Positions 10,010-57,985 of a stretch of 64,000 nucleotides of DNA are shown here, piece by piece. The position numbers and the translations under genes were made by a program. The notes below the pieces were generated by a model. The model did no database searches, was not told the DNA's origin, and saw nothing but the letters and a program-made list of their open reading frames with translations. Origin of the DNA: Armatimonadota bacterium (GTDB lineage Bacteria > Armatimonadota > HRBIN16); NCBI GenBank assembly GCA_942492855.1, contig OW818647.1, positions 1,142,264 through 1,206,263 on the forward strand. Reading direction: 5' to 3'. The stretch's first letter is position 1. Every line of letters starts with the position of its first letter.

Positions 10010-10197
10010 CGCTCTTCATCCTCCGAAATGACAGCATTCGACCTGACCATCATCATGATGTTTTTGTCAATGATCACCCACTCCACGACTTCACCCTTTT
10101 GTAGCTCGATGGCATCAGCGACTGTGGCGGGGAAGTTGACATACCATTGGTGACGGCCTTTGTAGTTGATGTGCTGCACTCTCGTTTTGGCTCCCAT
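10006..10197 (-). CDS. Small AbrB/MazE-like putative DNA-binding protein carried inside the IS, upstream of the transposase
   Basis: The 63-aa ORF contains KGRHQWYVNFPATVADAIELQKGEVVEW, which resembles the looped-hinge-helix motif. It lies within the IS boundaries next to an AT-rich promoter-like stretch at 10200-10330. Confidence 0.3.
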   Translation of the reverse strand: MGAKTRVQHINYKGRHQWYVNFPATVADAIELQKGEVVEWVIIDKNIMMMVRSNAVISEDEER

Positions 10198-10429
10198 ATG
10201 GTTCCCTCCAATCTAGTTATCACTTATGAAATATCATACATTACAATAGATAATCAATAGCTTTATGGATAATATTCTGACGTTTGTGTGATATTTCAAA
10301 GATATGCTGTTACTAATAGAAATAACAGCTGGCGCGCTGGGCATACATCATGGGGTCGGTGTGTTTTCGAGTGGAGTGAAACGGTAGACTACAAGGTCGC
10401 TAGTGTGGAAACATTCAAAAGGCCAAAGC

Positions 10430-11626
10430 TCAGTCACGCCAATAGCGTGCGCGGCGCCCCTCCCACACCCGGTTGAACGGCGTGCGCAGCAGGTTCCCCA
10501 CGCTTTTGGGCAGGCTGGAGCAGGGCAGCACATCGCCGGTGGGCGATACGCTGAGCAGTCCGTCGCACGCGGCGCAGGACTTGCCGCCCAGTTGGGAGGC
10601 CACCGGATTAAACAGGCAGTATGGCGTGGGCGAGTACCACATAAACTCGATACCCTCATCACGAGCCGCCTGCTGAATGCCCGCCATCAGACCAGCCATC
10701 TCGGTGTAGCTGATGGTCACCTCTTCATCAGGCGCGCTGCCGCATGGGATCACCATGTTCATGGAAAGCCGCTTCATGCCGATGCTCTTCACGAAGGAGA
10801 TGAGCTCGGTCAGATGCGCCGAGTTCATGCGGTTCACCGTGGTGTTGGTATGCACATGGAGACCACTCCGCTTCAGCAGCTCCACACCCCGAACCGTGCG
10901 GTCGAATGAACCAGGGAGCTGCGTTAGACGGTCGTGAACCTCCGCATTCGGACCTTCCAGGCTGACCTGCGCGCTGCGTAGACCCGCGGCCTTCAATCCC
11001 GTGACCAGCTCCTCGGTGAGGTTGGTGCCGTTAGTGATGAGGTTCACACGGATACCCAGTTCGGTGGCGTAGGCGGTCAGTTCGACCAGGTCTTTACGTA
11101 GGGTGGGCTCACCGCCGGTCCAACTGACGCTGGGCACTTCGGCGTCCTGCTTAATGATCTGCAGCACCCGTTTGACTTCGTCCGTGCTCATTTCTTTGCA
11201 GTCTGGGAGTTTTTTGCACTGGCAGCCGGCGTAGCAAAAGCGGCAGCTCAGGTTGCAGCGGTATGTGAGTGCGATCTCCGATAGCACCGGCAGTGTGTTG
11301 AAGGGCCTTTGGTAGGGCACCACATCCACCGATATGCGGTCGTGACCCTCACCCAGGCAACCCATGACCATCGCACGGATGTCGCTGAAGAAGTCGCTGA
11401 TGTCCTTCAGCTTGGCATCATCATCCGCCATCTTCGTGCTGCGGCTACTGATCACCTCACGGATCGGCCGCCCTCTCAGCGTCTCCTTGAGCAGCAGCAG
11501 GCCCGTTTTATTGATCTTGTAGGCCTGGTTTGGCAGCAGGATGAGCAGGCTGTCGCGCTCGCGGACGGTCACGTGCGGTTTGATACTCTCCACAAAGCTG
11601 TCGATCCAGTCGATGCGGCTCTCCAT
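10430..11626 (-). CDS. Radical SAM enzyme with an N-terminal PqqD-like RRE and a SPASM domain. It is a RiPP-maturase-like protein. The IS insertion truncates it about 48 codons before its original end.
   Basis: CNLSCRFCY is the CxxxCxxC motif. The N-terminal region (90 aa) HVTVRERDSLLILLPNQAYKINKTGLLLLKETLRGRPIREV looks PqqD-like. Additional Cys clusters are present near the C-terminus. The likely start is MESRIDW at 11626, whose ATG overlaps the upstream stop in TGATG. The track ORF extends to 11722 through the repeat region in a different frame. Confidence 0.8.
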   Translation of the reverse strand: MESRIDWIDSFVESIKPHVTVRERDSLLILLPNQAYKINKTGLLLLKETLRGRPIREVISSRSTKMADDDAKLKDISDFFSDIRAMVMGCLGEGHDRISVDVVPYQRPFNTLPVLSEIALTYRCNLSCRFCYAGCQCKKLPDCKEMSTDEVKRVLQIIKQDAEVPSVSWTGGEPTLRKDLVELTAYATELGIRVNLITNGTNLTEELVTGLKAAGLRSAQVSLEGPNAEVHDRLTQLPGSFDRTVRGVELLKRSGLHVHTNTTVNRMNSAHLTELISFVKSIGMKRLSMNMVIPCGSAPDEEVTISYTEMAGLMAGIQQAARDEGIEFMWYSPTPYCLFNPVASQLGGKSCAACDGLLSVSPTGDVLPCSSLPKSVGNLLRTPFNRVWEGRRARYWRD

Positions 11627-13317
11627 CAGTGCGCGCCTCCGCTGACGCACGCGCTGTGACATGCCGAGTGGCACGCGCTGTGACAGGCACTGTGGCACGC
11701 GGAGTGGCAGGCACTGTGGCAAGCGTCATGACACGCGGTATGCACGTAGCACGCAGAGTGGCAGGCCTGCGAGCTCATAAAGGAGCTGAAGTCCTGGCTC
11801 TCGATCAGTTCATCGCCCTTGATGCCTTGCGCGATTTCATCCGGGCGGGAATCTACATACCGGTTGGTGGTGTGATAATGGGTGGTGCCATACCAGTAGT
11901 GCGCATAATACCGCGGATACCGGCGTTCATGCATCATGAAGCCCTCATCGCGTTGCTCTGGGGCCTCCTCCATTTTCTTGTATTGCTCGGCGATGACCTG
12001 CCGGTACCACTCCTTAGTCGCCTCCAGGTCGCAGTCCCACGCTTTGCGCTGGATTTGGTCCACCATATCCTGGAACATCGCCTCAAAATCGGCCGCCAAT
12101 AACGAGCCATCTCCACGGATGCGGCTGAGAAGCATCTCCTCATACCGGTTATCCGCTGACTGGTCAAGCGGGTAGAGCCGCTCCAGCTTGATAGGCTGCA
12201 CCTGCAGCACTTTCACCAACGCCACCGACTCCATGCGGGAGATCATCGCACCGAGAATGCGCGGCAGGGGCACCTCCAGCAGCATGGCCGCTTCGATCAT
12301 ATCCAGCTCAGCGATTTTGCCAGGGATGCGGTAGCTGGAGACCTCGATTTTCGGAGGAACCCACTCGCCGCGCTCCCAATCCACCTCACTCAGCTCACTT
12401 AACGCCGCCGTGGTGGACTTCATTTTGCGGCTGAGCAGCAGCAGCGAGACCACCACCACCCCAATCAGCAGGCCCCCTCCCAGCATCATGCGTCCCATGT
12501 TCTGCTGTACTCGTGGAATGTCGGGGAAACCCAGCTCATTCGCTACTCCGCCGTTTCCTGAGCCTGTTTGACCAACCAGCGGCTGATCGGACTGGGTTGC
12601 ACTAGAGGTCTGTTTCAACGTAAACAGGCTGGCGTTGATGTAGGTGGAGAGGCGCATGTGATATTGCGGCGGGGGGTTGTTTTTGTGGAAGCGCACCGTC
12701 AGCCAGTTCTTACCGTTGGCCGGTTGACCGTAATAGCTGATGAGATACTCCGAGTTGACATACTTCTCTGTGCGAAACCCAAGCTTCGTCAGCAGTTCTT
12801 GAGATACCGTCTTGCTGGCGGTGCTGATCGGATAGTGCAGATAAACCGTCATATGCTCAGCGGCTTCATCGAACTGGCACGGTGACCAGTTGAAATACAC
12901 CAGTTTCCCAAACTCGCTTTGGGTATACCCCATGTACCCGGCGGACACAAAGTCGGTGGCATAAGGGATGATGTAAGTGACCTCGCCGGAGCTCACAGAG
13001 GCCCCCTTGGCCAGCACCACGTCGAACTTGTTGCCCATATCCGTGATGGAGAGCCCGTATTTCCTGCCTGAGGAGTCGATCGCAGCCGCCTTGCCGTAGT
13101 CGAAGCGCGGGGCGGCGCTGCCAAAGCCCTCCAGGTAGAATCCGTGCAGCTCTCCGCTTAGAACCTTGTAACGAACTTTGTACACCACAATCGCCCGGCC
13201 GTCCTTTGTGGGCGAAACATCCACCTCAACCCACTTCAACACAGCCTCGGTGGCCATCGCACAGGTGGCCAGGATGCACAGACCGATGGCGATCAGCAGC
13301 TTACAGACATTTCTCAC
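11626..13317 (-). CDS. Secreted/membrane-anchored protein (signal peptide, beta-rich N-terminal domain, central TM helix, possibly DUF2207-like). The C-terminus is a Cys/His-rich tandem tetrapeptide repeat: ...ACHSACYVHTACHDACHSACHSACHSACHSACHSACHSACVSGGAH.
   Basis: 563-aa ORF. The signal peptide is MRNVCKLLIAIGLCILATCAMA, the TM segment is MMLGGGLLIGVVVVSLLLLS, and the C-terminal (ACHS)n tail is as shown. Its stop overlaps the rSAM start codon. Confidence 0.65.
   Translation of the reverse strand: MRNVCKLLIAIGLCILATCAMATEAVLKWVEVDVSPTKDGRAIVVYKVRYKVLSGELHGFYLEGFGSAAPRFDYGKAAAIDSSGRKYGLSITDMGNKFDVVLAKGASVSSGEVTYIIPYATDFVSAGYMGYTQSEFGKLVYFNWSPCQFDEAAEHMTVYLHYPISTASKTVSQELLTKLGFRTEKYVNSEYLISYYGQPANGKNWLTVRFHKNNPPPQYHMRLSTYINASLFTLKQTSSATQSDQPLVGQTGSGNGGVANELGFPDIPRVQQNMGRMMLGGGLLIGVVVVSLLLLSRKMKSTTAALSELSEVDWERGEWVPPKIEVSSYRIPGKIAELDMIEAAMLLEVPLPRILGAMISRMESVALVKVLQVQPIKLERLYPLDQSADNRYEEMLLSRIRGDGSLLAADFEAMFQDMVDQIQRKAWDCDLEATKEWYRQVIAEQYKKMEEAPEQRDEGFMMHERRYPRYYAHYWYGTTHYHTTNRYVDSRPDEIAQGIKGDELIESQDFSSFMSSQACHSACYVHTACHDACHSACHSACHSACHSACHSACHSACVSGGAH
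11632..11727 (-). repeat. Imperfect 12-nt tandem repeat (about 8 copies) that encodes the (Ala-Cys-His-Ser)n tail
   Basis: The plus strand reads GAGTGGCACGCG CTGTGACAGGCA CTGTGGCACGCG GAGTGGCAGGCA CTGTGGCAAGCG.... The copies differ mainly at synonymous positions (TGC/TGT, AGC/TCT/TCC/TCG, GCG/GCA/GCC). Confidence 0.8.
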
Positions 13318-13964: not shown

Positions 13965-14765
13965 ATGTTTGTAGAAGATTATCGTGAATGGCATGAATTG
14001 GATGATCATGAAAAGCTGAAGTTGGTTAAAAAGCTGAAGCAGATTGTAATAGAAGTAGTAAAAGGTGATGTCTACCCTCGGCAACATAATAGTGAATACA
14101 GCTACCTTCACTACAAGATCATGCGTGCACAAATCGACCTTGTTCCTGAGATTGTAGAGATGTGCAACAACGCAGCTGGGCTTATATCTTATCTTGAAAC
14201 TGAAACAAAATCTATCAGTGATGGAGCAGAAATAGTAAATACCCAGTTCGCTCCACTCCTTGCGGTCCTTAGCAGTTTTCCTGGTGATGATCCGATATCT
14301 GATGCCATCACGGGATTAGGGATTGACCAGATCAACAAGGTATGGTCAAGGTGTTTAGAGAGGCGAACAACCGAACCTGATGCGGCGATTACATCAGCTC
14401 GATCCCTAGTAGAAACGGTATGTAAGCACATAGTACTCGAACCTCAAGACGCAGATGATGAGGACCTTGACTTTGTCGTGCTATACAAAAAAGCAGTCAC
14501 CAAGCTAAACCTGCATCCTACTCAGGCTGTAGACAAACAATACAAACAACTACTACAAGGATGCCTAAGCATCATAAATCCTATTGGAACTATTCGTAAC
14601 TGGACGGCAGATTCCCATGGTAGTGATCCTAAAACCGTTCCTGTATCGGTGGATGAGGCAACGCTGATAGTAAATATAGCAGGCAGTATCGCGATGTTTT
14701 TGCTTACCAAGTGGCATAACGAACCGCTAAAACCAGCAGATAACCCATTCGGATTATCGTTTTAG
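13965..14765 (+). CDS. Abi_C-like protein (abortive-infection C-terminal domain motif RNWTADSHG), a putative phage-defence protein
   Basis: 266-aa ORF in an AT-rich island. It has a C-terminal R-N-x4-S-H-G motif and an acidic, helical N-terminal region. Confidence 0.4.
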   Translation: MFVEDYREWHELDDHEKLKLVKKLKQIVIEVVKGDVYPRQHNSEYSYLHYKIMRAQIDLVPEIVEMCNNAAGLISYLETETKSISDGAEIVNTQFAPLLAVLSSFPGDDPISDAITGLGIDQINKVWSRCLERRTTEPDAAITSARSLVETVCKHIVLEPQDADDEDLDFVVLYKKAVTKLNLHPTQAVDKQYKQLLQGCLSIINPIGTIRNWTADSHGSDPKTVPVSVDEATLIVNIAGSIAMFLLTKWHNEPLKPADNPFGLSF

Positions 14766-41549: not shown

Positions 41550-42740
41550 ATGCTTATCGCCCTGATCTTAGCTATTCTTCTATTTGGTTATAACACCGCA
41601 TGCACCGCATCGCCATACCAGCCGGGTATGCTTGCTAAATCCATACAGCCCGCGATTGACAAACATCAAATCGCCGGTGCGGTGATGCTGGTCGCCAACA
41701 AAGAGAAGGTCCTGGCCATTGAATCGGTCGGATATGCGGACCTTGAGACAAAACGCCCTATGAAAGCCGACACGACTTTCGTCATTGCCAGCATGACGAA
41801 GGCCATGACGTGCACGGCTATCATGATGCTCGTTGATGAGGGCAAATTGAAGCTAGACGATCCTGTAGAAAAGTATCTGCCAGAGTTCAAGGGGCAGATG
41901 GTGCAGGTGGAAGGTGACGACGAGCACAAACTGCTGCGAAAGCCGAAAGCCCCCATCACCATCCTGCAGGCCCTCAACCACACCAGCGGCTTGCTGACCA
42001 ACTACCCGTATACCAACCTGGTAGATACGCCTTCACAGTACCAGCGCGTATTGGCGGCGGCCTTAACCCCGCTTCAGTTTTAACCTGGAAGCCAATTTTC
42101 CTATGGCAACTGCGGTTATGAAGTCGCGGGCCGCATCATCGAGGTCGTCACTGGCATGAGTTACGGCGACTTCTTGACAAAGCGCCTACTCAAACCGCTG
42201 GGTATGAGCCAAACCCGCTTCATACCGACCGCAGCACAGGTAAGCCGGCTTGCTAAGCTCTACACCCCAAATGAAGCAGGAACAAAGTTGGAGGAAACAC
42301 CATTTCCTGTCACATACCCCCTCACTGACCGAAACCGGGTACCATTTGCCGCCGGAGGATTGGTCTCAGACGCGAAAGACATAGCGAAATACTGCCAGAT
42401 GATGCTTAACGGCGGTGTATACAAGGGCGTGCGCGTGCTGTCGGAGCAGGCGGTCGGTCAATCGACCACCACCACGACGGGCCACCTACTGAACGATGGT
42501 GTGACGGAAACTGGCTACGGTCTGGGTTGGAACACGGGGCAATACTTCGTCAGCGGAGATCCATTGAGTCGAAAGCCATACACTCACAGCGGAGCATTCC
42601 GCACAGATATGTATATCGACCCGGAGAACGAGTTGATCTATGTGTTTATGGTTCAGGTTGGCAACATGACCGACAGCACGCCATTCACCACACCATTCCA
42701 CAAGGTTGCTCTGGAGTGTTTTGGGAAGGCTGGGCGGTAG
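41550..42740 (+). pseudogene. Beta-lactamase-fold serine hydrolase (S-x-x-K = SMTK; Y-G-N motif) interrupted by an in-frame TAA at 42081-42083
   Basis: Track ORFs 41550..42083 and 42156..42740 are in the same frame. The 72-nt gap translates without a stop as PGSQFSYGNCGYEVAGRIIEVVTG, which continues the fold. Confidence 0.6.
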
Positions 42741-42862
42741 CGCTTTGTAGTATGGGACGGTGGATAGTTGTGACATGGAAATCGTTGATGTACAAGAAGG
42801 ATTTTAGATAGTCACTATTGAATAGATGATTGGTAGCTAACCACATAACAAGGAGCCATGAT

Positions 42863-43189
42863 ATGATCCAAGCCAATGGCGAATACGCCTGTCCAAAGTG
42901 CCATTTCACCCAGCCGTCGTCTACACCATACTGTCCACAATGCGGCCATCCTCAAGATCAACATGCCGAAGCCTCAAACGCCAGCAACGGATCACAGACG
43001 GTCTGGGAAGCACAAACCGAACTGCTTCGGTACGCCAAACTGAACCACCTGCTTAATAAATGGTGTTTGGCGTTGTTAGCGACACCAATTCTCTTCGGAT
43101 TAGTGGGTGCCATAATCGGTGTCTTATTCGCAGGTTGGTTTTCTCATGCGGTCAACGGAATAGTTCCGCAGTTTCCACTTGATGAATGA
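42863..43189 (+). CDS. Small zinc-ribbon membrane protein (CPKC...CPQC, then an AQTELL motif, then a C-terminal TM helix). It is a paralog of 63716..>64000.
   Basis: The start MIQANGEYACPKCHF has AAGGAG 7 nt upstream. The TM segment is ATPILFGLVGAIIGVLFAG. Confidence 0.5.
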   Translation: MIQANGEYACPKCHFTQPSSTPYCPQCGHPQDQHAEASNASNGSQTVWEAQTELLRYAKLNHLLNKWCLALLATPILFGLVGAIIGVLFAGWFSHAVNGIVPQFPLDE

Positions 43190-43263
43190 AATCGTTGGTT
43201 ACTGCAACAGAGGCGCCGTTTATGTAGGTAACCGCTCTGGCCAGGAATACTGGATCGGTTTTC

Positions 43264-43719
43264 TTGTTAGAGGAAACACCATTTCCTGTCACATTACCGC
43301 TTACTGACCGAAACCGGGTACCGTTTGCCGCCGGAGGATTGGTCTCAGACGCGAAAGACATCGCGAAATACTGCCAGATGATGCTGAACGGTGGTGTATA
43401 CAAGGGCGTGCGTGTTCTGTCGGAGCAGGCGGTCGGTCAATCGACCACCACCACGACGGGCCATATATTGAACGATAGCGTGGCGGAAACCGGCTACGGT
43501 CTAGGCTGGAACACGGGGCAGTATTTCGACAGCAGTAATCCGCTCAGCCGAAAGCCATATACCCACAGCGGAGCATTCCGCACAGACATGTATATCGACC
43601 CGGAGAACGAGTTGATCTATGTGTTTATGGTTCAGGTTGGCAACATGACCGACAGCACGCCATTCACCACACCATTCCACAAGGTTGCTCTGGAATGTTT
43701 TGGGAGGGCTGGGCTCTAG
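43264..43719 (+). pseudogene. Tandem partial duplicate of the 3' half of the beta-lactamase-family gene (matches 42290-42740 at about 95% identity)
   Basis: Its translation differs from residues 45-194 of ORF 42156..42740 at only a few positions. It has no N-terminal catalytic half. Confidence 0.6.
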
Positions 43720-46504: not shown

Positions 46505-47494
46505 ATGCACGTCGGCATCTTGGGGGCGGGCTCTTGGGGCACCGCCCTCGCCATACACCTGGCGAAAAAGGGAACGACCGTCACCCTGTGGGACCGTAAC
46601 CCCGAACATGCGACGACCCTTCAGAAGGAGCGGGAGAACGCCCGTTACTTAAGTGGGTATGCATTCCCGGAGTGCATCAACGTGGTGACGGAGATCGCAG
46701 AAGCCGTCAGCGGTTGTGAGCAGATCATCTTCGCGGTGCCGGTGGTAGGTGTGACCGATGTCGCAATTGACTGCAAGCCACACCTCAAAAACCAGCCCAT
46801 CGTCATCAGCGCCGCCAAGGGGCTGACTGATGAAGGCAAGCGGCCCTCTGAAGCGATCTCCGAGGTATTGGGACAGAGCATCAGTGCCATCGTGGCACTG
46901 TCTGGCCCCAACCTGGCTTTGGAACTCGCCCGGGAAGCTCCGTCTGCCACCGTGGCCGCCAGCCGCAGTCTGGTTGCGGCGAAGGCGACCCAGCAGATGC
47001 TGATGAACGATACCTTCCGTGTCTACACCAATCCTGATGTGATCGGTGTGGAGCTGAGCGGGGCTATTAAGAACGTGTTCGCTATCGCAGCCGGCATCAG
47101 CGACGGACTGGGGTTCGGCGATAACACCAAAGCGGTGCTGATCACCCGCGGCCTGGCCGAGATGACCCGTATGGGCATCGCGCTGGGAGCTCAGGAGCGC
47201 ACATTCATCGGACTGGCAGGCGTGGGCGACCTCGTGGCCACGGCCAGCAGTCGGCTGAGCCGAAACTACCGCGTCGGGCATTTTCTGGCAGATGGTCTGA
47301 ACCTGTTCCAGGCCCTTCAGGAGCTGCGCCAGGTTGCGGAAGGTGTCCCCACCAGCTATGCCGTGTGTGATCTGGCCGCCAGGCTGGACATCGAGATGCC
47401 CTTATGCCAGGTTGTGCGCAATGTGGTTGATGGCGGAATGAACATCCATCAGGCTGTATTTGAGCTGATGACACGCCCTCCGAAGCAAGAGTAA
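46505..47494 (+). CDS. gpsA: NAD(P)H-dependent glycerol-3-phosphate dehydrogenase
   Basis: N-terminal GAGSWGTALA Rossmann motif, GAIKNV, and a length of 329 aa. Confidence 0.88.
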   Translation: MHVGILGAGSWGTALAIHLAKKGTTVTLWDRNPEHATTLQKERENARYLSGYAFPECINVVTEIAEAVSGCEQIIFAVPVVGVTDVAIDCKPHLKNQPIVISAAKGLTDEGKRPSEAISEVLGQSISAIVALSGPNLALELAREAPSATVAASRSLVAAKATQQMLMNDTFRVYTNPDVIGVELSGAIKNVFAIAAGISDGLGFGDNTKAVLITRGLAEMTRMGIALGAQERTFIGLAGVGDLVATASSRLSRNYRVGHFLADGLNLFQALQELRQVAEGVPTSYAVCDLAARLDIEMPLCQVVRNVVDGGMNIHQAVFELMTRPPKQE

Positions 47495-48075
47495 GCCGCT
47501 ACCTTTCATCGGTCGGATCAGCGTGATCCGACCGATCTATTCCCTGTAAAACAGCCGCATATGCCCCGTGTTTATTGGCCCCCTATACTAATAGTATTTG
47601 GGTGACTGCTCAGCCCCGGCAATGGTTATTCATTATTACCCGCATGCGTCGCGGCGGTTTCCTGCGCCGGCCGGAGCGAAGCGACACCGGCCGCTAATGA
47701 TCTTCCACGCGGTGCAGGAACCCGCACTGGACGCAGTTCCCGGAGCGTCAGCTCCCGGAACGTAGTCGTGTGGGTGACTAAACCCGTGGCACGGTGGCTA
47801 GTCGTCTACAATCAGCACCGCCGGCCTTTGGCGACGGGTTCCGTGGCCCGTCCGTGACTGCGTCCCGGTACGGGCACTGTCACCCATCGCTGATCAATAT
47901 CGGCCCCCTTCTGCGGGCTGTCACCCATCAGACCGGAGTGGGCCTGAGACCTCTGCCACCGCTGGCGACGCGCCAGACCGTCGCGGACATTGCCATTCAA
48001 GGCTGAGAAGTTACGTATTTGGGGTATAATCAAACTGATCATTCACCTGTTTGCACACAAACACGGGAGGCTACG

Positions 48076-50277
48076 ATGGATCGACGCAAGTTTCTACTCT
48101 CTGGGGCCACGGCTATCGGCACGGGCATACTCGGCGCAGCCGCAGTGGCTGAGGCCAAAGAGAAGGGTGCCGGGCAGACGCTCACACCTGGGCTAAGCAC
48201 CCCGGTCGTCACCCTGCCGCACCAGATGCACCTCTGCGATGACACCATCCGCCTCGCCACCAAGGCAGTGATGGGCGAATGGGGCCGCGAGATGAAGCCT
48301 CTGCCCTTTAAGCTGGAAGATAAAGTCGATGTCACCGGCATGAGCGAATATATGAAGTATGCGCACAGCATCCGGCTGATTTCCGAAAATGCCCCCCTCC
48401 GATTTGAACCCGGTATGCGCCTGATCGGCAGTGCCACCGTGCTGGAGGCCGCCGGACATCAGGTGCCGCTATACAACCAGAGCAGCGTCAGCCACACCAC
48501 GTTTGGCTACGAACAGGCCCTGAAATCCGGCCACAGCGCCATCCGTGCCAAGCTGGAAGCCCGTCTGAAAGACACTGACCTCAGCAAGAAACAGCGTGAC
48601 TACTTGGAGTCGATGCGTATCTGCCTGGACGCCTACGGTGCCTGGCACAAACGCAATATGGAATTGGCCGCGAAGAACGGCGCAACCCAGATCGTGGCCG
48701 CGATGAAACGAGTGCCCGAGATGCCCCCGAGTAACTTCTTCGAGGCCGTGCTCTCGCTGCACCTGAGCTGGGCGTGGACCCGCCTATGCGGCAACTGGAG
48801 CGGTATAGGCCGCATCGACAAGATGCTTGGCCCCCTGCTTGCCAAAGACCTCAATGCCGGTAAGATCACGCTGGATGAGGCCCGCGAGCTGGTGGCGCAC
48901 TTCTGGCTGATGGGTGCCGAGTGGACCCGTCCTGTCGGCCCGGGCAGCGGTGATGCGCAGTTTTACCAGAACATCATTTTGGGCGGGATCGACGAAAAAG
49001 GCGTAGAGGTCACCAACCCGGTCACTTACCTCGTGCTGGATGTGGTGGAAGAGCTTCGCATGAGCGACTTCCCGATTGCGGTACGTCTGAACCCCAAAAC
49101 GCCCGAACTGCTTCTGAAGCGCATCGCACAGGTGCAGCGGCTGGGCGGCGGGATCATCGCCACCTACAATGAGCCGGTGGTGATTGAGGCGATGACGAAG
49201 CTGGGATATCCGCTGGAAGAGGCGCGCAACTTCACCAATGACGGTTGCTGGGAGGTGCTGGTGCCGGGCAAAACCGCCTTCACCTACGTGCCTTTTGATA
49301 CCCTGCAGCTTCTTCAGGATGCCATGGGCCTCACAAACGCCAACGCACTGATCCCACAATACGCCAGTTTTGAGAACCTGTATGCGGCGTTCGAGCAGCG
49401 GCTGGCCACCCACGTCAAGTGGCATCACGATATCGCCGATGGCTGGCAGATAGGCGGCTTACCGGCCACGGTGCCCTCTCTGTTCGTCGAGGGCTGCATT
49501 GAGAAGGCCGCCGACTACAACGACCGCGGATCGAAATACTGCCAACTGGCCTGCCATGCCGGCGGGATGGCCGATACTGCCAATAGCCTGATGGCCATCA
49601 AACATGCCGTTTATGACGCCAAGCTGATCAGTTGGAATGACATTGTAACCGCCATGCGCAACGACTGGCGCGACAACGAAAGCCTGCGACGGATGATCGC
49701 CAGTCGAGTGCCCGCATACGGCAACGACAACGACCAGGCGGACGCCATGGCGCAGCGGGTCTACAACAGCTTCACCGGTTTGGTGGCCGAGACCAAGTTC
49801 CGCAAGGGAGTGTTCCGCCCGGCGGGTATCAGCACGTTTGGCCGCGAGCTTGAGTGGAGCCCGCTCCGCAAGGCCACCGCGGATGGGCATCACGCTGGCG
49901 ACATCTTGGCCACGAACTTCTCGCCATCACCAGGCACCGACAAATACGGGCCGACCGCGGCTCTGTGCAGCTACTGCAAGATGGACTTCACCAACATGCC
50001 CGGCATCGGCGCATTTGAGTTGAAGATCATGCCAGGCAGCGTCAAGGGAGAGAAGGGCATTCAGACGATGGTCAGCTTGCTCAAGGGCTTCCAGAAGATG
50101 GGCGGTTGCTTCCTGCATATTGATGTCGTGGATTCCGCCGTGCTGCTGGATGCTCAGAAGCACCCGGAGAAGTATCCCAACCTCGCGGTACGAGTGGCTG
50201 GATGGAGTGCCCGTTTCGCCACGCTGAACAAGCAGTGGCAGGATATGATCATCAACCGCACCCAGCAGGTGGTGTAG
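48076..50277 (+). CDS. Pyruvate formate-lyase-like glycyl radical enzyme with an N-terminal twin-arginine (Tat) signal peptide
   Basis: The C-terminal glycyl-radical motif is RVAGWSARFATLNKQWQDMIINRT. An internal GCWE motif marks the catalytic Cys. The N-terminus MDRRKFLLSGATAIGTGILGAAAVAEA is a Tat signal, and GGGAGG lies 6 nt upstream. The track ORF starts at 48019. Confidence 0.7.
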   Translation: MDRRKFLLSGATAIGTGILGAAAVAEAKEKGAGQTLTPGLSTPVVTLPHQMHLCDDTIRLATKAVMGEWGREMKPLPFKLEDKVDVTGMSEYMKYAHSIRLISENAPLRFEPGMRLIGSATVLEAAGHQVPLYNQSSVSHTTFGYEQALKSGHSAIRAKLEARLKDTDLSKKQRDYLESMRICLDAYGAWHKRNMELAAKNGATQIVAAMKRVPEMPPSNFFEAVLSLHLSWAWTRLCGNWSGIGRIDKMLGPLLAKDLNAGKITLDEARELVAHFWLMGAEWTRPVGPGSGDAQFYQNIILGGIDEKGVEVTNPVTYLVLDVVEELRMSDFPIAVRLNPKTPELLLKRIAQVQRLGGGIIATYNEPVVIEAMTKLGYPLEEARNFTNDGCWEVLVPGKTAFTYVPFDTLQLLQDAMGLTNANALIPQYASFENLYAAFEQRLATHVKWHHDIADGWQIGGLPATVPSLFVEGCIEKAADYNDRGSKYCQLACHAGGMADTANSLMAIKHAVYDAKLISWNDIVTAMRNDWRDNESLRRMIASRVPAYGNDNDQADAMAQRVYNSFTGLVAETKFRKGVFRPAGISTFGRELEWSPLRKATADGHHAGDILATNFSPSPGTDKYGPTAALCSYCKMDFTNMPGIGAFELKIMPGSVKGEKGIQTMVSLLKGFQKMGGCFLHIDVVDSAVLLDAQKHPEKYPNLAVRVAGWSARFATLNKQWQDMIINRTQQVV

Positions 50278-50367
50278 GGCGTAATACGTGTAGGGGCAAC
50301 CCCCGTGGTTGCCCCAAATAGTCACCAAAGTTACAGGGCACCCACAGGGGGGTGCCCCTACGTTTTA

Positions 50368-51234
50368 TTAGCCCCGCATCGCGCCTTTTTGCCCGCACAC
50401 AAGCGCGCCGCGCTGGTTCGCGGCCTCATTGATCGCCTCCAGGGATTCCCCCCGCCACAACGCCATGCTCATCGCCGCGGTGAAGGCATCGCCGGCGCCG
50501 ACGGTATCGACCACCTTAACCTGTAGACCCGGGTGCTCCGCGCTCTGATCTCGGGTGACCAGCAGACTGCCATTGGCACCCCGCGTGTAGGCGCACATTT
50601 GCAGATCGTAATCTCGGCAGAATCGTCTCAGTAGCGGCTCGGGTTCGGCATCTGGCCAGCCCAGCAGCCTGGTCACTGTCAGCAACTCCGCATCGCTGAT
50701 TTTGAAGACCGTGGCCACCTTCAGCGATTGCTCGATCAGCTCCCTGCTGTAGTAATGCTGCCTGAGGTTCACATCGAACACGCGGATACTGTCCTTCGGC
50801 ATCGCATGCACGAAAGCCATGATGCTGGCCCGGCTGACCGTGCTCCGTTGTGCCAGACTGCCGAAGCATGCGATCTGGCTGCTTTTAGCAAGCTCCAGAG
50901 CCTCCGGGCTACATGATATGTAATCCCACGCCACCCCCTCATGGATGACGAAATGCGCCACACCCTCATCATCCAACTGCGCTTCCGCGATGCCGGTGGG
51001 ATGTTCCGTGTCACGCTGAACATACTCCGATGACAGCCCGTTTTCCGCCAGTATCTGAATGGCCGAGTCACCCAGTTCATCACAGCCGACGCGGCTGATG
51101 ACCGTGCTCTGGCCGCCCAGGCAGGAAGCGTGGAACGCGAAGTTGGCCGGGGCTCCGCCCAGAGCCTTCCCCTGGGGGAGCACATCCCAGAGCAGCTCCC
51201 CGATGCCGCAAACGATGGGTTTGGCTTCTGTCAT
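50368..51234 (-). CDS. PfkB-family carbohydrate kinase
   Basis: GG motif near the N-terminus and the C-terminal DTVGAGDAF motif. Confidence 0.75.
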   Translation of the reverse strand: MTEAKPIVCGIGELLWDVLPQGKALGGAPANFAFHASCLGGQSTVISRVGCDELGDSAIQILAENGLSSEYVQRDTEHPTGIAEAQLDDEGVAHFVIHEGVAWDYISCSPEALELAKSSQIACFGSLAQRSTVSRASIMAFVHAMPKDSIRVFDVNLRQHYYSRELIEQSLKVATVFKISDAELLTVTRLLGWPDAEPEPLLRRFCRDYDLQMCAYTRGANGSLLVTRDQSAEHPGLQVKVVDTVGAGDAFTAAMSMALWRGESLEAINEAANQRGALVCGQKGAMRG

Positions 51235-52253
51235 ACGAGGTCCACGAACACCTTCATCGACTTATCGGCGGATTGCTCGATGAAATGATAGGCCTCCAGG
51301 AACTGCTCGAAGGGGAAGTGTTTGGTCTCCAGCGGAGCGGTTTGGATACGTCCGTCGGCGATCCACTGCACCGCCTCTGCGTAGTCCTCATGGCGATACA
51401 TCAGCGTGCCGACCAGGCTGATCTCATGCTCACCCATGTTGGCCATATCGATGGCTGGCTTCTTGCCGAAAACGCCCAGCACCACGATCGTGCCGCCTTT
51501 GCCGATGGTAGTGATCGCGGCGTTCATACTCTGCTCGGAGGCAGCGGCCTCCATCGCCAGGTCGAATCCCTCGTCACCGAACACCCGACGGCTGGCCTCG
51601 GGCAGCGTCTCACGCGAGGCGTTGCTGACCTCATCGATGCCCACCTGCTTGGCGATGTCCAAGCGGTAGTCGCTGAGGTCGACGATCAGAACCTTCTTGG
51701 CACCACGGACTCGGCACGCCTGGGCCGCAAAGATGCCGATGGGCCCTGCGCCTAGTACCACCACATTTTCGCCCTTGATTTTACCTGCCCGACCGGTGCT
51801 GTGAACCGCCACCGCCACGGGCTCTACGAAAGCGCCCTGCTCCAACGTGAAGTTATCCGGCAGCGGTACGATCTTGTCCGCCTCGGTGACGTACACATCC
51901 TGCGCCACACCGGGGGCCTGGAAGCCGCGCACCTTCAGCTTCTCGCAGACATTGTACTGGCCCCGCAGGCAGGGTCGGCATTGGCCGCAGACCTCTTGCG
52001 GGGTTGCGGTGACCTTCTGGCCGATGTGGATCCCGGTCACACCCGGGCCGATGGCCTCGATCACCGCGCTATACTCATGGCCCTGCACGATGGGGTAGCT
52101 GGTGAAGGGGTGCGTGCCGTGGTAGACGTGCATGTCGCTGCCGCAGATGCCGATCCGCTGAATGCGCATCGCCACCTGTCCTGGTCCAGGGGTCGGGGTG
52201 GGAACATCGCGAAACTCGATAATTCCTGGTGAAGTCATGATCGCTTGTCGCAT
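51231..52253 (-). CDS. Zinc-dependent alcohol dehydrogenase (L-iditol/threonine dehydrogenase-like MDR)
   Basis: The catalytic zinc ligand lies within GICGSDMH, the structural zinc motif is CGQCRPC, and the Rossmann motif is GAGPIG. Confidence 0.75.
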   Translation of the reverse strand: MRQAIMTSPGIIEFRDVPTPTPGPGQVAMRIQRIGICGSDMHVYHGTHPFTSYPIVQGHEYSAVIEAIGPGVTGIHIGQKVTATPQEVCGQCRPCLRGQYNVCEKLKVRGFQAPGVAQDVYVTEADKIVPLPDNFTLEQGAFVEPVAVAVHSTGRAGKIKGENVVVLGAGPIGIFAAQACRVRGAKKVLIVDLSDYRLDIAKQVGIDEVSNASRETLPEASRRVFGDEGFDLAMEAAASEQSMNAAITTIGKGGTIVVLGVFGKKPAIDMANMGEHEISLVGTLMYRHEDYAEAVQWIADGRIQTAPLETKHFPFEQFLEAYHFIEQSADKSMKVFVDLV

Positions 52254-52675: not shown

Positions 52676-55300
52676 ATGTGTGATGTATATAGCGATATTT
52701 TAACATGGTCTAAAACCATTCCTGTATGGCAACGGGATGCTTTGCGCCGTCTTCTTAATGATTCACTGTCGCAAACCGACTATGATGAGTTAGTCGATCT
52801 TTGCTTGGTGGAAAATGGTATAGAATCTCAATTACCATCTCCTCTGTCATCTATCCCTCTGTCTGAAGATCATTTACCCGTTAGGGATGTCATTACTGGG
52901 CCTGTCACGCTGACATCGATACATCATGCAACGAATGTGAATAAACTAGACCCTTCGTCTATGTTGCAGTTCAATCCTGCTGGTCTGACTGTGATATATG
53001 GTATGAATGGTTCGGGTAAATCAGGTTATTCACGTATACTCAAACAAGTATGCCGGTCAAGACATTCTGATGTTCGTGTATATCCCAATGTTTATGATGC
53101 TGCCACTGCTACCGTCCCATCAGCCATTATTGATTATCAAAACGGGGCTCTACCGTCTAGTTGTTCGTGGTGTCACGGTCAGCCATCAGATCCTGCGCTA
53201 TCATCCGTAACAGTATTCGATTCTAGATGTGCACAGGTCTATGTCACCCATAGTAACGAGGTTGCATACCGTCCATTTGGCCTCGATATTTTGGATAAAC
53301 TAGCCGCTACTGTCGATGAATTAAAGCGCACAATCACATCACTTGCGAACAGTGTTGTAGTTGACGTGGTCATTCCTCCTGATAAGATCAAGCAACATCT
53401 AGCATCATCAGGTTTATTGCCCATCAACCACTCAACCGATATGAAACGTGTTCACGCGTCAGCACGATTTGATGCGTCAGATGAAACTGCGCTTAATACT
53501 CTCATCAAGCAAATGGATGTCGCCAACCCGACAGAGAAAATCGCAGAAATAAACATCATAATCAAGAACATATCAGAGTTACGTCTTCAACTAAAAACTT
53601 TGAATGGTTTATATTCGGATGAAGCCTATTCAGAACTATCTTCACATATCGAAGCCCTGAAACTTGCTCGTGAGATATACATACTATCTCAATCGGTCTT
53701 TATTGCCGATTTACCAGGTACCGGAACTGATCCATGGCGTAAAATGTGGGATCATGCTAGAGAGTTTCATACAAAGCATGCATATCCCGACAAGCCATTT
53801 CCGAATATAGATTCGGATGCGAAATGTTTGTTGTGTCAGCAACCTCTTGACACGCTTAGTCGCTCTAGGCTAAGTCGTTTTGAAGAATTCGTTTTGAATA
53901 AAGCTTCGTCTGTATTGGCAGATAGTGAAGCCACTATAGCCACTGACCAAAAAAAATACCTGGATAATCCGAATCTGTCAGTGGACGAAGCGCTGCTTAA
54001 AGTCATTTCGTCAATGTGTCCCAATCTTGACGAGGCGATTCGTATATTCATGGATAGTGTTAAGGGTGAACGAGAACGGATATTACCGAATATCGAGAGT
54101 TGCATTGATGTAAAATACACAAAATGTTGTTTCGACATCAAGCCGATAGACCGGTTAATCGCCTCCTATAACGATCAGATATCGGCTCTAGAGCAAGCCC
54201 AAAATCCGGGGGCATCTGCAGCTATGGAAGCTAGTCACCTAGAACTCATCACTGGTCAATGGTTACTTCAGAATATTGCATCCATAGATTCTGCATATAA
54301 CAAGTTGAAATATAAGCATTCATTGCTACAGATTGCCGATTCGCTACGAACAAACGCGATCACGACGCTATCTACTGCACTTTCTCATAAGTATATTACT
54401 GCCAATCTAAAAAATTCAATTCTCACAGAATGCGATGCGCTCAATATCTACAGCATGAAGGTTGTTGCGGAATTTACCGGTAATAAAGGATCATCGAAGA
54501 TGTCTCTAAATCTCGATCGTAAATTACTTACCAATGCACCGATCAATGACATCATTAGTGAGGGAGAATTCCGAGCCATTTCGTTAGCTACATTCTTCGC
54601 GGAAATATCCCAGTCAGATGATAAATCGGCCATAGTTCTAGATGACCCAGTTTCTTCCCTTGATCATCATTTCAGAAATCTGGTTGCCTCCAGGATTGTT
54701 CGCGAAGCTGCAAACCGTCAGGTTATCGTATTTACCCATGACTTAGTTTTTGTAGATAGCCTCATAACTGAATGCGACATTATGGATTATACGGCTCCTA
54801 CCATATATAGTCTTTTTTGCACAGGACTATTTACGGGCTACACAAATCCAGGCCTTCCCTTCATAGGAATGAAAGCTAGAGATCGCGTGGTCTTCCTTCA
54901 GCACCATGTTGATAGTATCCGTGACCTGTATGCTAATGATCCCAGTCAATATGAATATGAGGTATATGTTTTCTATAATAACGTACGAAGAACATGGGAG
55001 CGTGTTGTTGAGGAGTTGTTACTCAATAGTATTGTACTTCGCCATTCAGATTCTATTCAAACCGAAAGGTTGGAAAATCTGGCTGATGATATAACAAGAG
55101 ACGATTGGTTGAAAGTACATGGCAGTATAAAACGAGCTTCGGGTATCATCGAAGCTCATGACCATTCAAACGCCACTGGGACTCGTCTGCCACCTCCGGC
55201 TCAGTTAGTAGCAGATCTCAAGGTTATACGAGATTACATCACCGAACTTAATAGACGTGCTCGCAGCTCTCGAAAACAACTCCCTGCGTCATCCGGTTAG
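52676..55300 (+). CDS. AAA_13-family Rad50/SMC-like ABC ATPase with a coiled-coil insertion and a CxxC zinc hook (RloC/PrrC-like architecture). The C-terminal 230-aa domain is of unknown function. A defence-island protein.
   Basis: Walker A is GMNGSGKS, the zinc hook is KCLLCQQPLD in mid coiled-coil, the Walker B/D-loop is VLDDPVSSLD, and the H-loop is FTHD. The region is AT-rich. Confidence 0.65.
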   Translation: MCDVYSDILTWSKTIPVWQRDALRRLLNDSLSQTDYDELVDLCLVENGIESQLPSPLSSIPLSEDHLPVRDVITGPVTLTSIHHATNVNKLDPSSMLQFNPAGLTVIYGMNGSGKSGYSRILKQVCRSRHSDVRVYPNVYDAATATVPSAIIDYQNGALPSSCSWCHGQPSDPALSSVTVFDSRCAQVYVTHSNEVAYRPFGLDILDKLAATVDELKRTITSLANSVVVDVVIPPDKIKQHLASSGLLPINHSTDMKRVHASARFDASDETALNTLIKQMDVANPTEKIAEINIIIKNISELRLQLKTLNGLYSDEAYSELSSHIEALKLAREIYILSQSVFIADLPGTGTDPWRKMWDHAREFHTKHAYPDKPFPNIDSDAKCLLCQQPLDTLSRSRLSRFEEFVLNKASSVLADSEATIATDQKKYLDNPNLSVDEALLKVISSMCPNLDEAIRIFMDSVKGERERILPNIESCIDVKYTKCCFDIKPIDRLIASYNDQISALEQAQNPGASAAMEASHLELITGQWLLQNIASIDSAYNKLKYKHSLLQIADSLRTNAITTLSTALSHKYITANLKNSILTECDALNIYSMKVVAEFTGNKGSSKMSLNLDRKLLTNAPINDIISEGEFRAISLATFFAEISQSDDKSAIVLDDPVSSLDHHFRNLVASRIVREAANRQVIVFTHDLVFVDSLITECDIMDYTAPTIYSLFCTGLFTGYTNPGLPFIGMKARDRVVFLQHHVDSIRDLYANDPSQYEYEVYVFYNNVRRTWERVVEELLLNSIVLRHSDSIQTERLENLADDITRDDWLKVHGSIKRASGIIEAHDHSNATGTRLPPPAQLVADLKVIRDYITELNRRARSSRKQLPASSG

Positions 55301-55718
55301 TTGTTGTTTATCCGCCTGCCGCGGTATAAGTCACACCGCAGATACCCCATGTCGGTCCAAACCGGTAAGGGGCATGGCGTGCCGTCCCTGGCGCCCGCTT
55401 CAGCGGGCCACTCACTGATCAGCCGTGCGGTGAGGAAACCCGCTTCAGCGGGTGCCTGAACCCGCGGCCACCTGGCCACTCTACCAGTTGGTATTGGATC
55501 CTGCTAGTCGCCTCTACCATAGGTCCATGGGTGAGAATCTCATACCTCTCATATGGGGTGTCGCACTAGATGCTCTCGTCGTCAACAACGTGTATATAAT
55601 GTACTGGGTTTCGTTTCGCGGCTGAGATATGACGAAACTCTTAAACAGCCTAGTAGTGTTCTTCAGTGTATTGCGGTTTTCAACAAACGATCAGTTATGT
55701 TAATGATAAGGGCTAAAA

Positions 55719-56619
55719 ATGCATAATCCGGTAAGCATACCTGTTAACTACACAAAACCTCACATGAGTTATGATGATCAAGCGCATTTGCTTGTAAAAA
55801 GAGGATTGTCTGGTGATTTTACAAAGATCAAGAATGCACTTCAGTGCATTAACTACTACAGACTTTTCTGCATACTGGTATATATACCGTATAAATAACA
55901 ATGGCAAGGATATTCAGCCAGGAATCACAATCGATCATATTTTGGATTTGTATGAATTCGATCGAAACCTGAGGCTATTAGTTTTAGATGCCATTGAACG
56001 AATTGAGATTGCTTTACGTACAGACATTGCATACTATCATTCGAAAGACTATGGCCCATTTGGCTACATAAACTCGATATCTTGTAGCAAGGACACAGAC
56101 CTTATCGATCGATTAAGGCAATGCAGAGACAACGTCAATAATTCGCATTCTGATTTCTACCGCCACTATAGAGGAAAGTATCAGAACCAAGACTTTCCCA
56201 TCTGGATGTTGGTGGAGACTATCAGTTTTGATCTACTTGTGCGGGTATACAAAATACTTCCCAAACAGATGAAGTTCGCCATAGCTAATAAGTATGGCTT
56301 GCCAGCTCGCACATATAGCTCATGGATGTCAACACTGAAAAGTGTAAGGAATACATGTGCTCATCACGGCCGATTATGGAATACAAAACTATCTACAAGA
56401 CCACAAATGCCGGGTAATATGAGCACGTGGCAATCAAATATACAGGATAGTGATTCTATTTTCATGTTATTGACCGTATGCAAGTATTTTCTTGACTTCA
56501 TTGATCCAAATAATACATGGCGCCAGAAGGCGATTGATCTTATCAGCGTTCGTCCCAATGATCAGCTACAACAAATGGGTGTACCGCAAAACTGGGCCAA
56601 TAGCCCGATGTGGAAGTAA
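55719..56619 (+). pseudogene. Abi_2-family (AbiD/AbiF-like) abortive-infection gene with a +1 frameshift near 55860
   Basis: In one frame the N-terminus reads MHNPVSIPVNYTKPHMSYDDQAHLLVKRGLSGDFTKIKNALQCINYYRL. In the track frame (55813..56619) the remainder reads SAYWYIYR...RNTCAHHGRLWN, which carries the Abi_2 signature. Confidence 0.6.
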
Positions 56620-56827
56620 ACACCAGCATTTTTTCCAAATTTACATAAAATGTATTGACATTTTGTATTGCAAAGTGTAATATTAGAGATACGAACACTC
56701 TAACAGTCCAACGATTTGGAACACCAAATCTGGGCTCTGGCTTAGAGTATTTTAGGAAAACAATTATGCGGGCCAAAGCTCTTTGGCCCGCATTAATGTT
56801 TTCTTCACTGTATCATCTGATGATATA

Positions 56828-57217
56828 TTAAAAAGCCATCAGTTTCCCGGGTTTCCTCTTCTCTTTTTCGTCTCGTGTCTTTTCAAGAAAGTCGTGCCCT
56901 TGCCAAGTCAACAGTGTTTGTTTTGGCACTTTTTTAATATAGTTTGCCGTTTCTAAAAGATGAATATGGTAACTGACGATACGCTCATCATATTTACCAC
57001 GTATCTCATCGCTATCCATTATGCCATTCAGACTGTCGTGAACTTCAACATAGGCTAATAGTGCGGTAGCGAGGGTCATGTCACGGGTCATGTCTTTTCT
57101 CCTGATGTAAATTTGGAATTCGTTATCCACCTGTATTGTAACTGCGAATCTAGGTTTACACACCCCTATGTCGTAAATATACCAAACATCACATATCTCA
57201 ACCTGCACCGTTACCAC
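56828..57217 (-). CDS. Hypothetical protein (island gene)
   Basis: 129-aa ORF in an AT-rich island. I recognise no motifs. Confidence 0.3.
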   Translation of the reverse strand: MVTVQVEICDVWYIYDIGVCKPRFAVTIQVDNEFQIYIRRKDMTRDMTLATALLAYVEVHDSLNGIMDSDEIRGKYDERIVSYHIHLLETANYIKKVPKQTLLTWQGHDFLEKTRDEKEKRKPGKLMAF

Positions 57218-57343
57218 CGCGCGCTACCATAATGCTACATCCGCATCATTTTGCCCTTCTCCTCCGCTCTCCCCATTCGCCCTCCCTCGCCTTTTTCTGC
57301 TACAATACCCGTGGAATGCAAACGTCACTTAATGAGGGTTTCG

Positions 57344-57985
57344 ATGCCTGGAGCACCCACAACTAAAAGACAGTGGATTTATATGGATGAAGCAGGGGAC
57401 CCAGGCTTCAAACTAGGCAATGGGTCATCCTCGCACTTTATTCTGGGTATGTGCATCTTCGATGACCATACCGAGGCGGCGGCGACATCGCAGAGTATCA
57501 TCCAGGCAGCCCAACGTCTTGGCTACAAGGATGAATTCCACGGCAAAAATGCGCAGGCCACAGTAAGTACAGAGTTTTTCAACAGCATCGTGGCTCATCA
57601 CTTTAAAACTCGCCTCATTTTCGTGGACAAGAGTATTATATGGAGCCCTAACTTTAAATCAGACCCAAAACTCTTCTACCGGTCCATTGCAGGCATGTTC
57701 TTCAGGTATAACGGCGGCTTAATAGATAATGCAAAGATCTTCATCGATGGCGGTATAGATTCTAGGTTGGAAGCGGAAATAAAAACATCAGTGAACAACC
57801 TGACTTCTGGGCAAATACTGGATATCTAATTCGTTGATTCAAAAACCCACAGGCTCATCCAACTTGTCGATATGGTTGTCACCGCGGCCTATAAAGGTCG
57901 TATACATAAAAATCCTCGATGGCTCCAGCACTGGAACCAGCTAAGACGTGCCGGCCGTATAGATGATGAATGGTGGTTCCACTAA
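57344..57985 (+). pseudogene. DUF3800-family gene with an in-frame TAA at 57827-57829
   Basis: The N-terminal motif is WIYMDEAGDPGF. After the TAA the same frame continues for 51 codons as FVDSKTHRLIQLVDMVVTAAYKGR...WWFH*, which contains the DUF3800 C-terminal IQLxD motif. Confidence 0.55.

Follow-up and report, generated by a model that had tools for sequence, protein, structure and literature searches.

Tat-type leader peptides in a family of glycyl radical enzymes from Armatimonadota and other bacteria: candidates for radical enzymes outside the cytoplasm

Introduction

Glycyl radical enzymes (GREs) are treated as strictly cytoplasmic: the radical is installed by an activase with S-adenosylmethionine (SAM) and an electron donor, all of them cytoplasmic, and it does not survive oxygen. 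Here we describe a GRE gene that encodes an N-terminal leader of the twin-arginine translocation (Tat) type, located in a 64,000-nucleotide stretch from an Armatimonadota bacterium (GenBank assembly GCA_942492855.1, contig OW818647.1, positions 1,142,264 to 1,206,263 of the forward strand), hereafter called the window. The gene had been pointed out in an earlier reading of the letters and open reading frames (ORFs), made without database searches (the sequence-only reading). We confirm that the window protein is a GRE, and its leader is real and translated. From the sequence comparisons, a leader-bearing GRE clade with its own adjacent activase emerges as a solid, family-wide observation; the export step and the substrate are what we infer from it. 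We give slightly better than even credence to the reading that the window protein is a functional GRE of the 1,2-eliminase class that would be activated in the cytoplasm, exported in the folded state by the Tat system and act outside the cytoplasm.

Results

The window gene encodes a glycyl radical enzyme

The GRE gene and its functional elements lie at the following positions of the window.

48076..50277, + strand: complete GRE coding sequence, 733 residues plus stop codon, an uninterrupted ORF
48460..49824, + strand: PFL-like barrel domain, residues 129-583 (PF02901, E-value 6e-90)
48493..48495, + strand: codon of His140 in the invariant SVSHTT motif, aligning with His164 of glycerol dehydratase and the HypD equivalent
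49237..49254, + strand: Cys loop NDGCWE, residues 388-393, with Cys391 as the thiyl-radical site and Glu393 as the general base of 1,2-eliminase GREs
49909..50217, + strand: glycine radical domain (Gly_radical), residues 612-714 (PF01228, E-value 1.9e-22)
50188..50217, + strand: glycyl radical loop VRVAGWSARF, residues 705-714, with the codon of the radical site Gly709 at 50200-50202

The sequence-only reading had recognized a GRE by the VRVAGWSARF loop and the GCWE cysteine motif and had proposed a scan with PF02901 and PF01228. Both profiles matched, and the fold searches described below agree with the assignment. The glycyl loop follows the family consensus R[I/V][A/S]GWSARF, and its glycine is present in 121 of 121 sequences (family counts of 121 comprise 120 homologs and the query). 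GCWE occurs in every Cys-loop variant printed for the 121 family proteins, and His140, Cys391, Glu393 and Gly709 are all invariant in the family alignment A1.

The closest solved structures by sequence are those of HypD (6vxc), propanediol dehydratase (5i2a) and glycerol dehydratase (1r8w), with E-values of about 1e-64 to 1e-67, HypD being the best single-sequence match (4e-67). A search with the family profile against the same three enzymes gave E-values of 1e-111 to 1e-115. The AlphaFold2 model of the window protein, computed from a 25-sequence family alignment, has a mean pLDDT of 85.4 and a pTM of 0.86. Its predicted fold is the 10-stranded α/β barrel of PFL-like enzymes, and Foldseek aligned the model to a dozen solved GREs with TM-scores of 0.80-0.84 at 20-25% sequence identity. 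The NCBIfam scores fall below every curated equivalog cutoff (TIGR01774, 300 vs 678; HypD, 298 vs 1100 bits; CutC, 225 vs 1050; PFL, 86 vs 994). Judged by its catalytic set, the window protein belongs to the dehydratase/1,2-eliminase class, in a separate, unnamed family.

The GRE gene is under strong purifying selection and not decaying. Compared with close relatives, the ratio of nonsynonymous to synonymous changes (ω) is 0.03-0.07 over 731 codons, with no frameshifts and no stops, and the catalytic motifs are intact in both paralogs of both relative genomes (loci L005-L008).

The leader is translated and conserved

The N-terminal region and the sequence elements that set its start are as follows.

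48003..48030, + strand: promoter-like site, CTGAGA and TATAAT separated by a 16-nucleotide spacer (-10 element at 48025-48030), 10 of 12 consensus positions
48064..48069, + strand: Shine-Dalgarno sequence GGGAGG, 6 nucleotides before ATG 48076, read directly in the sequence
48076..48156, + strand: Tat-type leader, residues 1-27, with n-region MD, motif RRKFLL, h-region SGATAIGTGILGAAAVA and candidate cleavage between AVA and E or between AEA and K
48157..48201, + strand: residues 28-42, a disordered linker that joins the leader to the folded part

The window protein begins with MDRRKFLLSGATAIGTGILGAAAVAEAKE, matching the N-terminus given in the sequence-only reading. Residues 1-27 consist of MD, RRKFLL, SGATAIGTGILGAAAVA and EA, in this order, and are followed by KE; the h-region comprises 17 uncharged residues and is rich in Gly and Ala. 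Set against the Tat consensus S/T-R-R-x-F-L-K, the window sequence D-R-R-K-F-L-L presents RRxFL with Leu in place of Lys. Residues 1-42 have pLDDT values below 50 in the AlphaFold2 model.

The leader is real and translated, and it is under selection. Residues 1-21 are nearly invariant between the window protein and four close relatives (L005-L008), yet 8-12 of the 27 leader codons are synonymously changed in each pair. In the comparisons within the window clade, the nonsynonymous divergence (dN) of the leader is 0.05-0.31 against a synonymous divergence (dS) of 0.46-2.0. In the paralog L006, MDRRKF is preceded at a distance of four codons by a stop codon, so that the start is fixed there. The sole in-frame start 5' of ATG 48076 in the window is TTG 48019, which is probably untranscribed because it lies just upstream of the TATAAT -10 element; the promoter-like site, identified by its consensus match alone, ends 46 nucleotides upstream of ATG 48076. 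No Shine-Dalgarno sequence precedes the next Met codon of the window gene (Met51). We discarded alternative starts, upstream or downstream, given where the Shine-Dalgarno sequence and the promoter-like site lie, the upstream stop in L006 and the conservation through synonymous changes, and the start downstream of the RR motif that the sequence-only reading had held up against its own interpretation was not borne out.

The curated Tat-signal hidden Markov models (HMMs) PF10518 and TIGR01409 give no match to the leader of the window protein, probably owing to its very short n-region and the Leu instead of Lys after RRxFL. Five of the six non-Bacteroidales relatives tested reach the TIGR01409 cutoff of 16.7 with 16.9-30.6 bits. 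The leaders of two relatives pass the PF10518 cutoff of 22.7 with 27.5 and 30.9 bits, and PF10518 is precomputed on the family proteins P0028 and P0035. The description of the leader in the sequence-only reading as a textbook Tat signal with an AxA site was slightly overstated, as the window leader matches neither model; the twin-arginine-type anatomy and its translation stood.

The leader is a trait of a large clade

The protein search returned 120 homologs with 48-96% identity, mostly of about 750 residues. The leader motif [S/N/D]RR[D/E]F[L/V/I]K is found in 81 of the 121 family proteins, so that the search for homologs with the same N-terminal extension, suggested by the sequence-only reading, was amply answered. 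In these 81 leaders, the median number of residues is 8 before the RR motif and 16 in the uncharged, Gly/Ala-rich segment after it. Relatives turned up in at least 583 stretches when one genome per species was scanned. They occur in Armatimonadota, Chthonomonadales, Planctomycetota/Phycisphaerae, Hydrogenedentota, Sumerlaeia, Lentisphaerota, Kiritimatiellia and Chloroflexota, as well as in many gut and rumen Bacteroidales, including the cultured Alistipes hominis, whose strain New-7 carries locus L058. The N-terminal domain alone, searched against 1.84 billion representatives, gave 59 matches, mostly fragments, and was uninformative on the family size.

We assigned the leader state of each locus by reading upstream from the match to the preceding stop. 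The family exists in two forms, one bearing the leader and the other leaderless, starting 5-25 residues before a conserved RRLSxxTHxLA motif. In a neighbour-joining tree of the C-terminal 560 residues, midpoint-rooted and without support values, the two forms fall into sister clades. This split points to one ancient gain or loss of the leader, followed by stable inheritance across phyla. On these comparisons, the leader is a trait of a large, phylogenetically coherent clade rather than an oddity of a single gene.

Each genome of the window clade has two leader-bearing GRE paralogs, which are 81-86% identical to the window protein. The 5.22 Mb Armatimonadota chromosome OY781964.1 carries L005 and L006, and a second, metagenome-assembled genome (CAZFLA01) carries L007 and L008.

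Many Bacteroidales members carry RK, RA or RS in place of RR and retain SRxxFLK and the h-region. Examples with SRKEFLK, SRAEFLK and SRSEFLK are L038, L044, L047, L052, L053, L057, L058, L063, L066, L071, L072 and L079, and the Bacteroidales leaders with RK, RS or RA score below the Tat HMM thresholds. The change could reflect a relaxed specificity or a different, possibly non-Tat, use of the leader.

Sixteen long members (889-981 residues) have a LamG-type Pfam match (PF13385, some also PF02210). They belong to Hydrogenedentota and Planctomycetales, and their Laminin_G_3 domain, of the concanavalin-A-like lectin type, is inserted after about residue 170 (for example, residues 219-347 of P0097; further cases are L070, L073, L077, L081 and L084). 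The RR leader is present in 15 of the 16, and the remaining one is truncated at the N-terminus. Leaderless Lentisphaerota/Victivallales members (L069 at 5094-7715, L078 and L082) contain another insert of about 170 residues near the N-terminus, without a Pfam match.

An activase usually lies beside leader-bearing genes, but not in the window clade

Of 80 related loci searched by tblastn, roughly 35 have an activase no more than about 2 kb from the GRE gene. In L002, whose GRE carries an RR leader and is 60% identical to the window protein, a 297-residue protein with Radical_SAM, Fer4_12 and Fer4 domains is encoded by a gene that overlaps the GRE stop by 4 bp; the two-gene pair lies at 10001-13140 of this locus. 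The loci with enough flanking sequence divide as follows.

Tat-type leader loci: activase adjacent, 28; none within 10 kb, 8
Leaderless loci: activase adjacent, 7; none within 10 kb, 15

The family activases have no signal and show the usual cytoplasmic N-terminus. Family-wide, the activase (29 loci) is the sole conserved neighbour. Next in frequency come a sulfatase and an unannotated family of 288-residue ORFs (8 loci each), and a PfkB kinase occurs in 3 loci. The Bacteroidales members are not in recognizable SusC/SusD loci. Gene context does not reveal the substrate.

No GRE activase is encoded within the window: tblastn with four family activases gave a best E-value of 0.39. The sequence-only reading was right that none is adjacent and that the flanking genes are gpsA, a PfkB kinase and an alcohol dehydrogenase. 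We also found no activase within 10 kb of the four close homologs L005-L008, and none of the best 120 homologs of the L009 activase, all at least about 52% identical to it, lies on the 5.19, 5.22 and 5.32 Mb chromosomes of the window clade. The window clade (L005-L008) has lost the activase linkage, and the loss is specific to this small clade. It provides no argument against radical activation, and Escherichia coli TdcE, activated by PflA encoded elsewhere, is a precedent for an unlinked activase. The view of the leader and the missing activase as single-gene oddities, taken in the sequence-only reading, did not survive the comparison: the leader is clade-wide, and the activase is usually adjacent to leader-bearing genes (28 vs 8 loci).

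The sole radical SAM gene of the window, and its sole protein with a CxxxCxxC motif, is a SPASM-type enzyme at 10430-11722 on the minus strand, 37 kb from the GRE gene. We rejected it as the activase; its CxxxCxxC motif is at about residue 156, and it has no similarity to the family activases. Directly upstream of it, at 11626-13317 on the same strand, lies the gene of a 563-residue protein that has no Pfam match and ends in (ACHS)n repeats. The two look like a maturase-substrate pair unrelated to the GRE. The window contains no TatA or TatC genes.

Flanking genes and other features of the window

The GRE gene is flanked by the following features.

46505-47494, + strand: gpsA, upstream flank
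50336..50357, + strand: terminator-like GC-rich hairpin with T-rich tail, between the GRE stop and the convergent PfkB gene
50368-51234, - strand: PfkB kinase, convergent, downstream flank
51231-52253, - strand: zinc-type alcohol dehydrogenase (Zn-ADH), paired with the PfkB kinase

The GRE gene looks monocistronic. The terminator-like hairpin at 50336-50357 was identified by a consensus match alone, and such matches are no commoner than in shuffled sequence. The PfkB and Zn-ADH pair is probably a polyol or sugar unit unrelated to the GRE. The intergenic region between gpsA and the GRE gene (47495-48075) measures 580 bp in the window, whereas in L001, a relative with 96% identity, it is about 1.8 kb long. 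No riboswitch was found 5' of the GRE gene, where the best Rfam match, a radC RNA, is sub-threshold (17.5 bits vs a cutoff of 40).

The remainder of the window holds the housekeeping genes gyrA, recA, metH, MTHFR, uvrA, queC, queF and apgM and some β-helix or GH-like genes. A defence-like island at 52676-57829 encodes an AAA_13 ATPase (874 residues), an Abi_2 protein (268 residues) and a DUF3800 protein. It sits between the Zn-ADH and GH42-like genes, where the syntenic relative L001/L005 has only a gene of 140 residues; a separate Abi_C gene is located at 13965-14765. The gene of a PF00144 β-lactamase-fold protein at 41550-43719 on the plus strand appears split into ORFs of 177, 194 and 151 residues with a small zinc-ribbon-like ORF between them, and at its position L001 has ORFs of 285 and 103 residues. 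The gene may be frameshifted or decaying.

Discussion

A possible route for a folded radical enzyme

GRE activases abstract the glycine hydrogen from the folded GRE, with the Gly loop flipped out of the barrel, and need SAM and reduced flavodoxin or ferredoxin. The Sec pathway exports unfolded chains, whereas the Tat pathway exports folded ones and is, to our knowledge, the only general route for moving folded proteins. Since activases act on the folded GRE and Sec takes unfolded chains, Tat is the sole export route compatible with a GRE, and no leader of another type was seen in the family.

According to the reading that we favour, the GRE would fold in the cytoplasm, where a conventional radical-SAM GRE activase, in the window lineage presumably encoded elsewhere in the genome, would put the glycyl radical on the folded enzyme. 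With the radical enclosed in its barrel, the folded GRE would then be moved by the Tat system to the periplasm or to the outer face of the inner membrane. There, in strictly anoxic habitats, it would carry out a radical elimination on a substrate that is hydroxylated and probably derived from carbohydrate. If the leader stayed uncleaved, the GRE would be held at the outer face of the inner membrane; by the positive-inside rule, membrane insertion of the h-region would place the catalytic domain outside. That activation precedes export, that export takes place, that the chemistry is an elimination and what kind of substrate is used are all points that we infer.

The evidence favours an extracytoplasmic location, whether exported or signal-anchored, over a cryptic signal. 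LamG inserts, a domain typical of secreted proteins, in leader-bearing members hint at such a location, as do the RR-leader sulfatases a few kb from two of the LamG-insert GREs (15518-16999 in L070 and 7931-9568 in L073). The sulfatase adjacency may merely reflect sulfatase-rich genomes. Sequence alone does not separate the three alternatives offered by the sequence-only reading, a cryptic signal, a membrane anchor and a periplasmic enzyme.

As for the chemistry, the Cys-x-Glu and His set suggests a 1,2-elimination on a hydroxylated substrate. An amine substrate seems unlikely, as the amine-binding Asp of HypD aligns with Ser242 of the window protein in an alignment of about 23% identity.

Arguments against export and alternative explanations

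Several points weigh against this proposal. We know of no precedent for an extracytoplasmic GRE, and the export itself is proposed from sequence features. An exported GRE, once quenched, would be beyond re-activation, with no SAM, reductant or activase outside. The leader of the window protein escapes both Tat HMMs, the Bacteroidales leaders that have exchanged the second Arg score below their thresholds, and the searches of the window, the surroundings of L005-L008 and the best activase homologs did not recover an activase for the window clade. The substrate assignment is weak, with a TIGR01774 score less than half of the cutoff (300 vs 678) and variable neighbours except for the activase.

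Alternatively, the leader may not serve export, and the GRE would then work in the cytoplasm. The leader would be a Tat-like or remnant peptide that acts there as a docking site for a chaperone or the activase, on the model of NarG, whose vestigial Tat motif is bound by NarJ, or it would interact with TatBC but not be translocated. All characterized GREs that we know of are cytoplasmic and reliant on cytoplasmic SAM, reductant and activase; the loss of the twin arginine in many Bacteroidales with SRxxFLK and the h-region kept, and the sub-threshold score of the window leader itself, fit such a use, and the tight coupling of leader-bearing genes to the activase fits a role in activation. However, the non-Bacteroidales leaders display the full export anatomy, with a short charged n-region, RRxFLK, 13-23 uncharged Gly/Ala-rich residues and a c-region of small residues, whereas remnant Tat motifs such as that of NarG have no hydrophobic h-region. 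GREs of the leaderless sister clade pair with activases too (7 loci), so the leader is not needed for activation, and the LamG-insert members, with a domain type typical of secreted proteins, carry the leader in every case with an intact N-terminus. We consider such a leader without export unlikely, albeit the most credible of the alternatives. Less probable still is that the window lineage, after losing the activase link, retains an exported protein without radical chemistry, which would serve in binding or non-radical catalysis, or an incipient pseudogene. The long branch of the window clade in the tree would suit this explanation, and so would the absence of an activase from the window and from within 10 kb of L005-L008, when sister lineages have one adjacent, and of window-clade chromosomes from the best 120 activase homologs (at least about 52% identical to the query). 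On the other hand, both genomes keep Gly709, the RVAGWSARF loop, NDGCWE and His140 intact in each of their two paralogs, the ω of 0.03-0.07 shows strong purifying selection with no frameshifts or stops, and TdcE and PflA set the precedent for an activase encoded at a distance.

Two further explanations concern the nature of the N-terminal extension. The leader would be an annotation artefact if translation truly began further downstream, at Met51 for instance, and produced a leaderless cytoplasmic GRE. Leaderless relatives do begin 5-25 residues before the motif that follows Met51, and a protein starting there would be structurally complete. Nevertheless, the contrast between GGGAGG before ATG 48076 and the lack of a Shine-Dalgarno sequence before Met51, the conservation of leader residues through many synonymous changes (dN < dS) and an RR motif invariant in 81 proteins across several phyla make a wrong start highly improbable. 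The extension might instead be an encapsulation peptide targeting a bacterial microcompartment; such N-terminal extensions are known from some propanediol dehydratase- and choline lyase-type GREs, and propanediol dehydratase is among the closest structures. The leader is of the Tat type and not an amphipathic helix, and tblastn with the shell proteins BMC-H and BMC-P (PF00936, PF03319; E ≤ 1e-3) found none in the window and none in the 10 kb flanks of about 80 related loci. We rejected microcompartment targeting, which this absence of shell genes effectively refutes and to which we attach next to no probability.

Comparison with known systems

Cytoplasmic activation followed by Tat export, as we propose it, combines features of several known systems. 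The glycerol and propanediol dehydratases (1r8w, 5i2a/5i2g, 9rco) share with the window protein the 10-stranded barrel (TM-score about 0.8), the RVxG[F/W/Y] loop, Cys-x-Glu and the His, and their activases are of the type paired with the relatives, a radical SAM enzyme with a ferredoxin-like insert. They differ from it by their 20-25% identity and by GCVE in place of GCWE, and the window protein has the shorter N-terminus. The window family also has its own motif, GNWSGIGRID, where these dehydratases bind the substrate. HypD (6vxc) has the same fold and aligned catalytic Cys, Glu and His (again GCVE vs GCWE), but it is cytoplasmic; the window protein stays far below its equivalog cutoff (298 vs 1100 bits) and has Ser242 in place of its amine-binding Asp. 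No characterized GRE that we are aware of has a Tat leader. In the literature searched we came across neither a GRE with a signal peptide or a periplasmic location nor a glycyl-radical Tat cargo; the coverage was incomplete and does not amount to proof of absence.

Established Tat substrates such as TorA, the hydrogenase small subunits and the glucose-fructose oxidoreductase of Zymomonas likewise have a leader of the type S/T-RR-x-F-L-K, whose h-region is weakly hydrophobic. The rationale known from these cofactor-containing Tat substrates would apply here as well, in that a protein gains a catalytic "cofactor" once folded, in the cytoplasm, and is then exported in that state; their cofactor is a metal or nucleotide, whereas here a radical SAM enzyme would supply it in the form of a protein glycyl radical. 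Conceptually closest as a case of radical-SAM maturation ahead of export is, by analogy, anSME with the exported sulfatases, in which a cytoplasmic radical SAM enzyme likewise modifies a protein before its export. The product of anSME is a stable formylglycine on a peptide segment, whereas the GRE would carry a reactive radical across the membrane in a folded barrel. The E. coli pair TdcE/PflA resembles the arrangement presumed for the window clade, with a GRE gene that has no adjacent activase and relies on one elsewhere. TdcE differs in being a keto-acid formate-lyase of the cytoplasm, with a Cys-Cys motif, and the unlinked activase of the window genome is presumed rather than located.

Implications

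The proposal is directly testable, with leader-reporter fusions, two-gene modules of GRE and activase and at least one cultured host at hand. If the leader does not drive export, the family would provide a new case of a Tat-like peptide in cytoplasmic use. If the GRE is exported, the Tat system can treat a protein radical like a "cofactor", radical enzymology reaches the periplasm, and the cellular location of a large GRE family in anaerobic polysaccharide degraders becomes defined. It is conceivable, though doubtful, that anaerobes extend Tat-carried glycyl radicals to a periplasmic radical chemistry on glycan-derived substrates that are not imported, a hint being the lectin-like LamG inserts of some leader-bearing members. 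If true, the family would contain the first extracytoplasmic radical enzyme and constitute a new class of Tat cargo, possibly with anaerobic radical processing of carbohydrates outside the cytoplasm.

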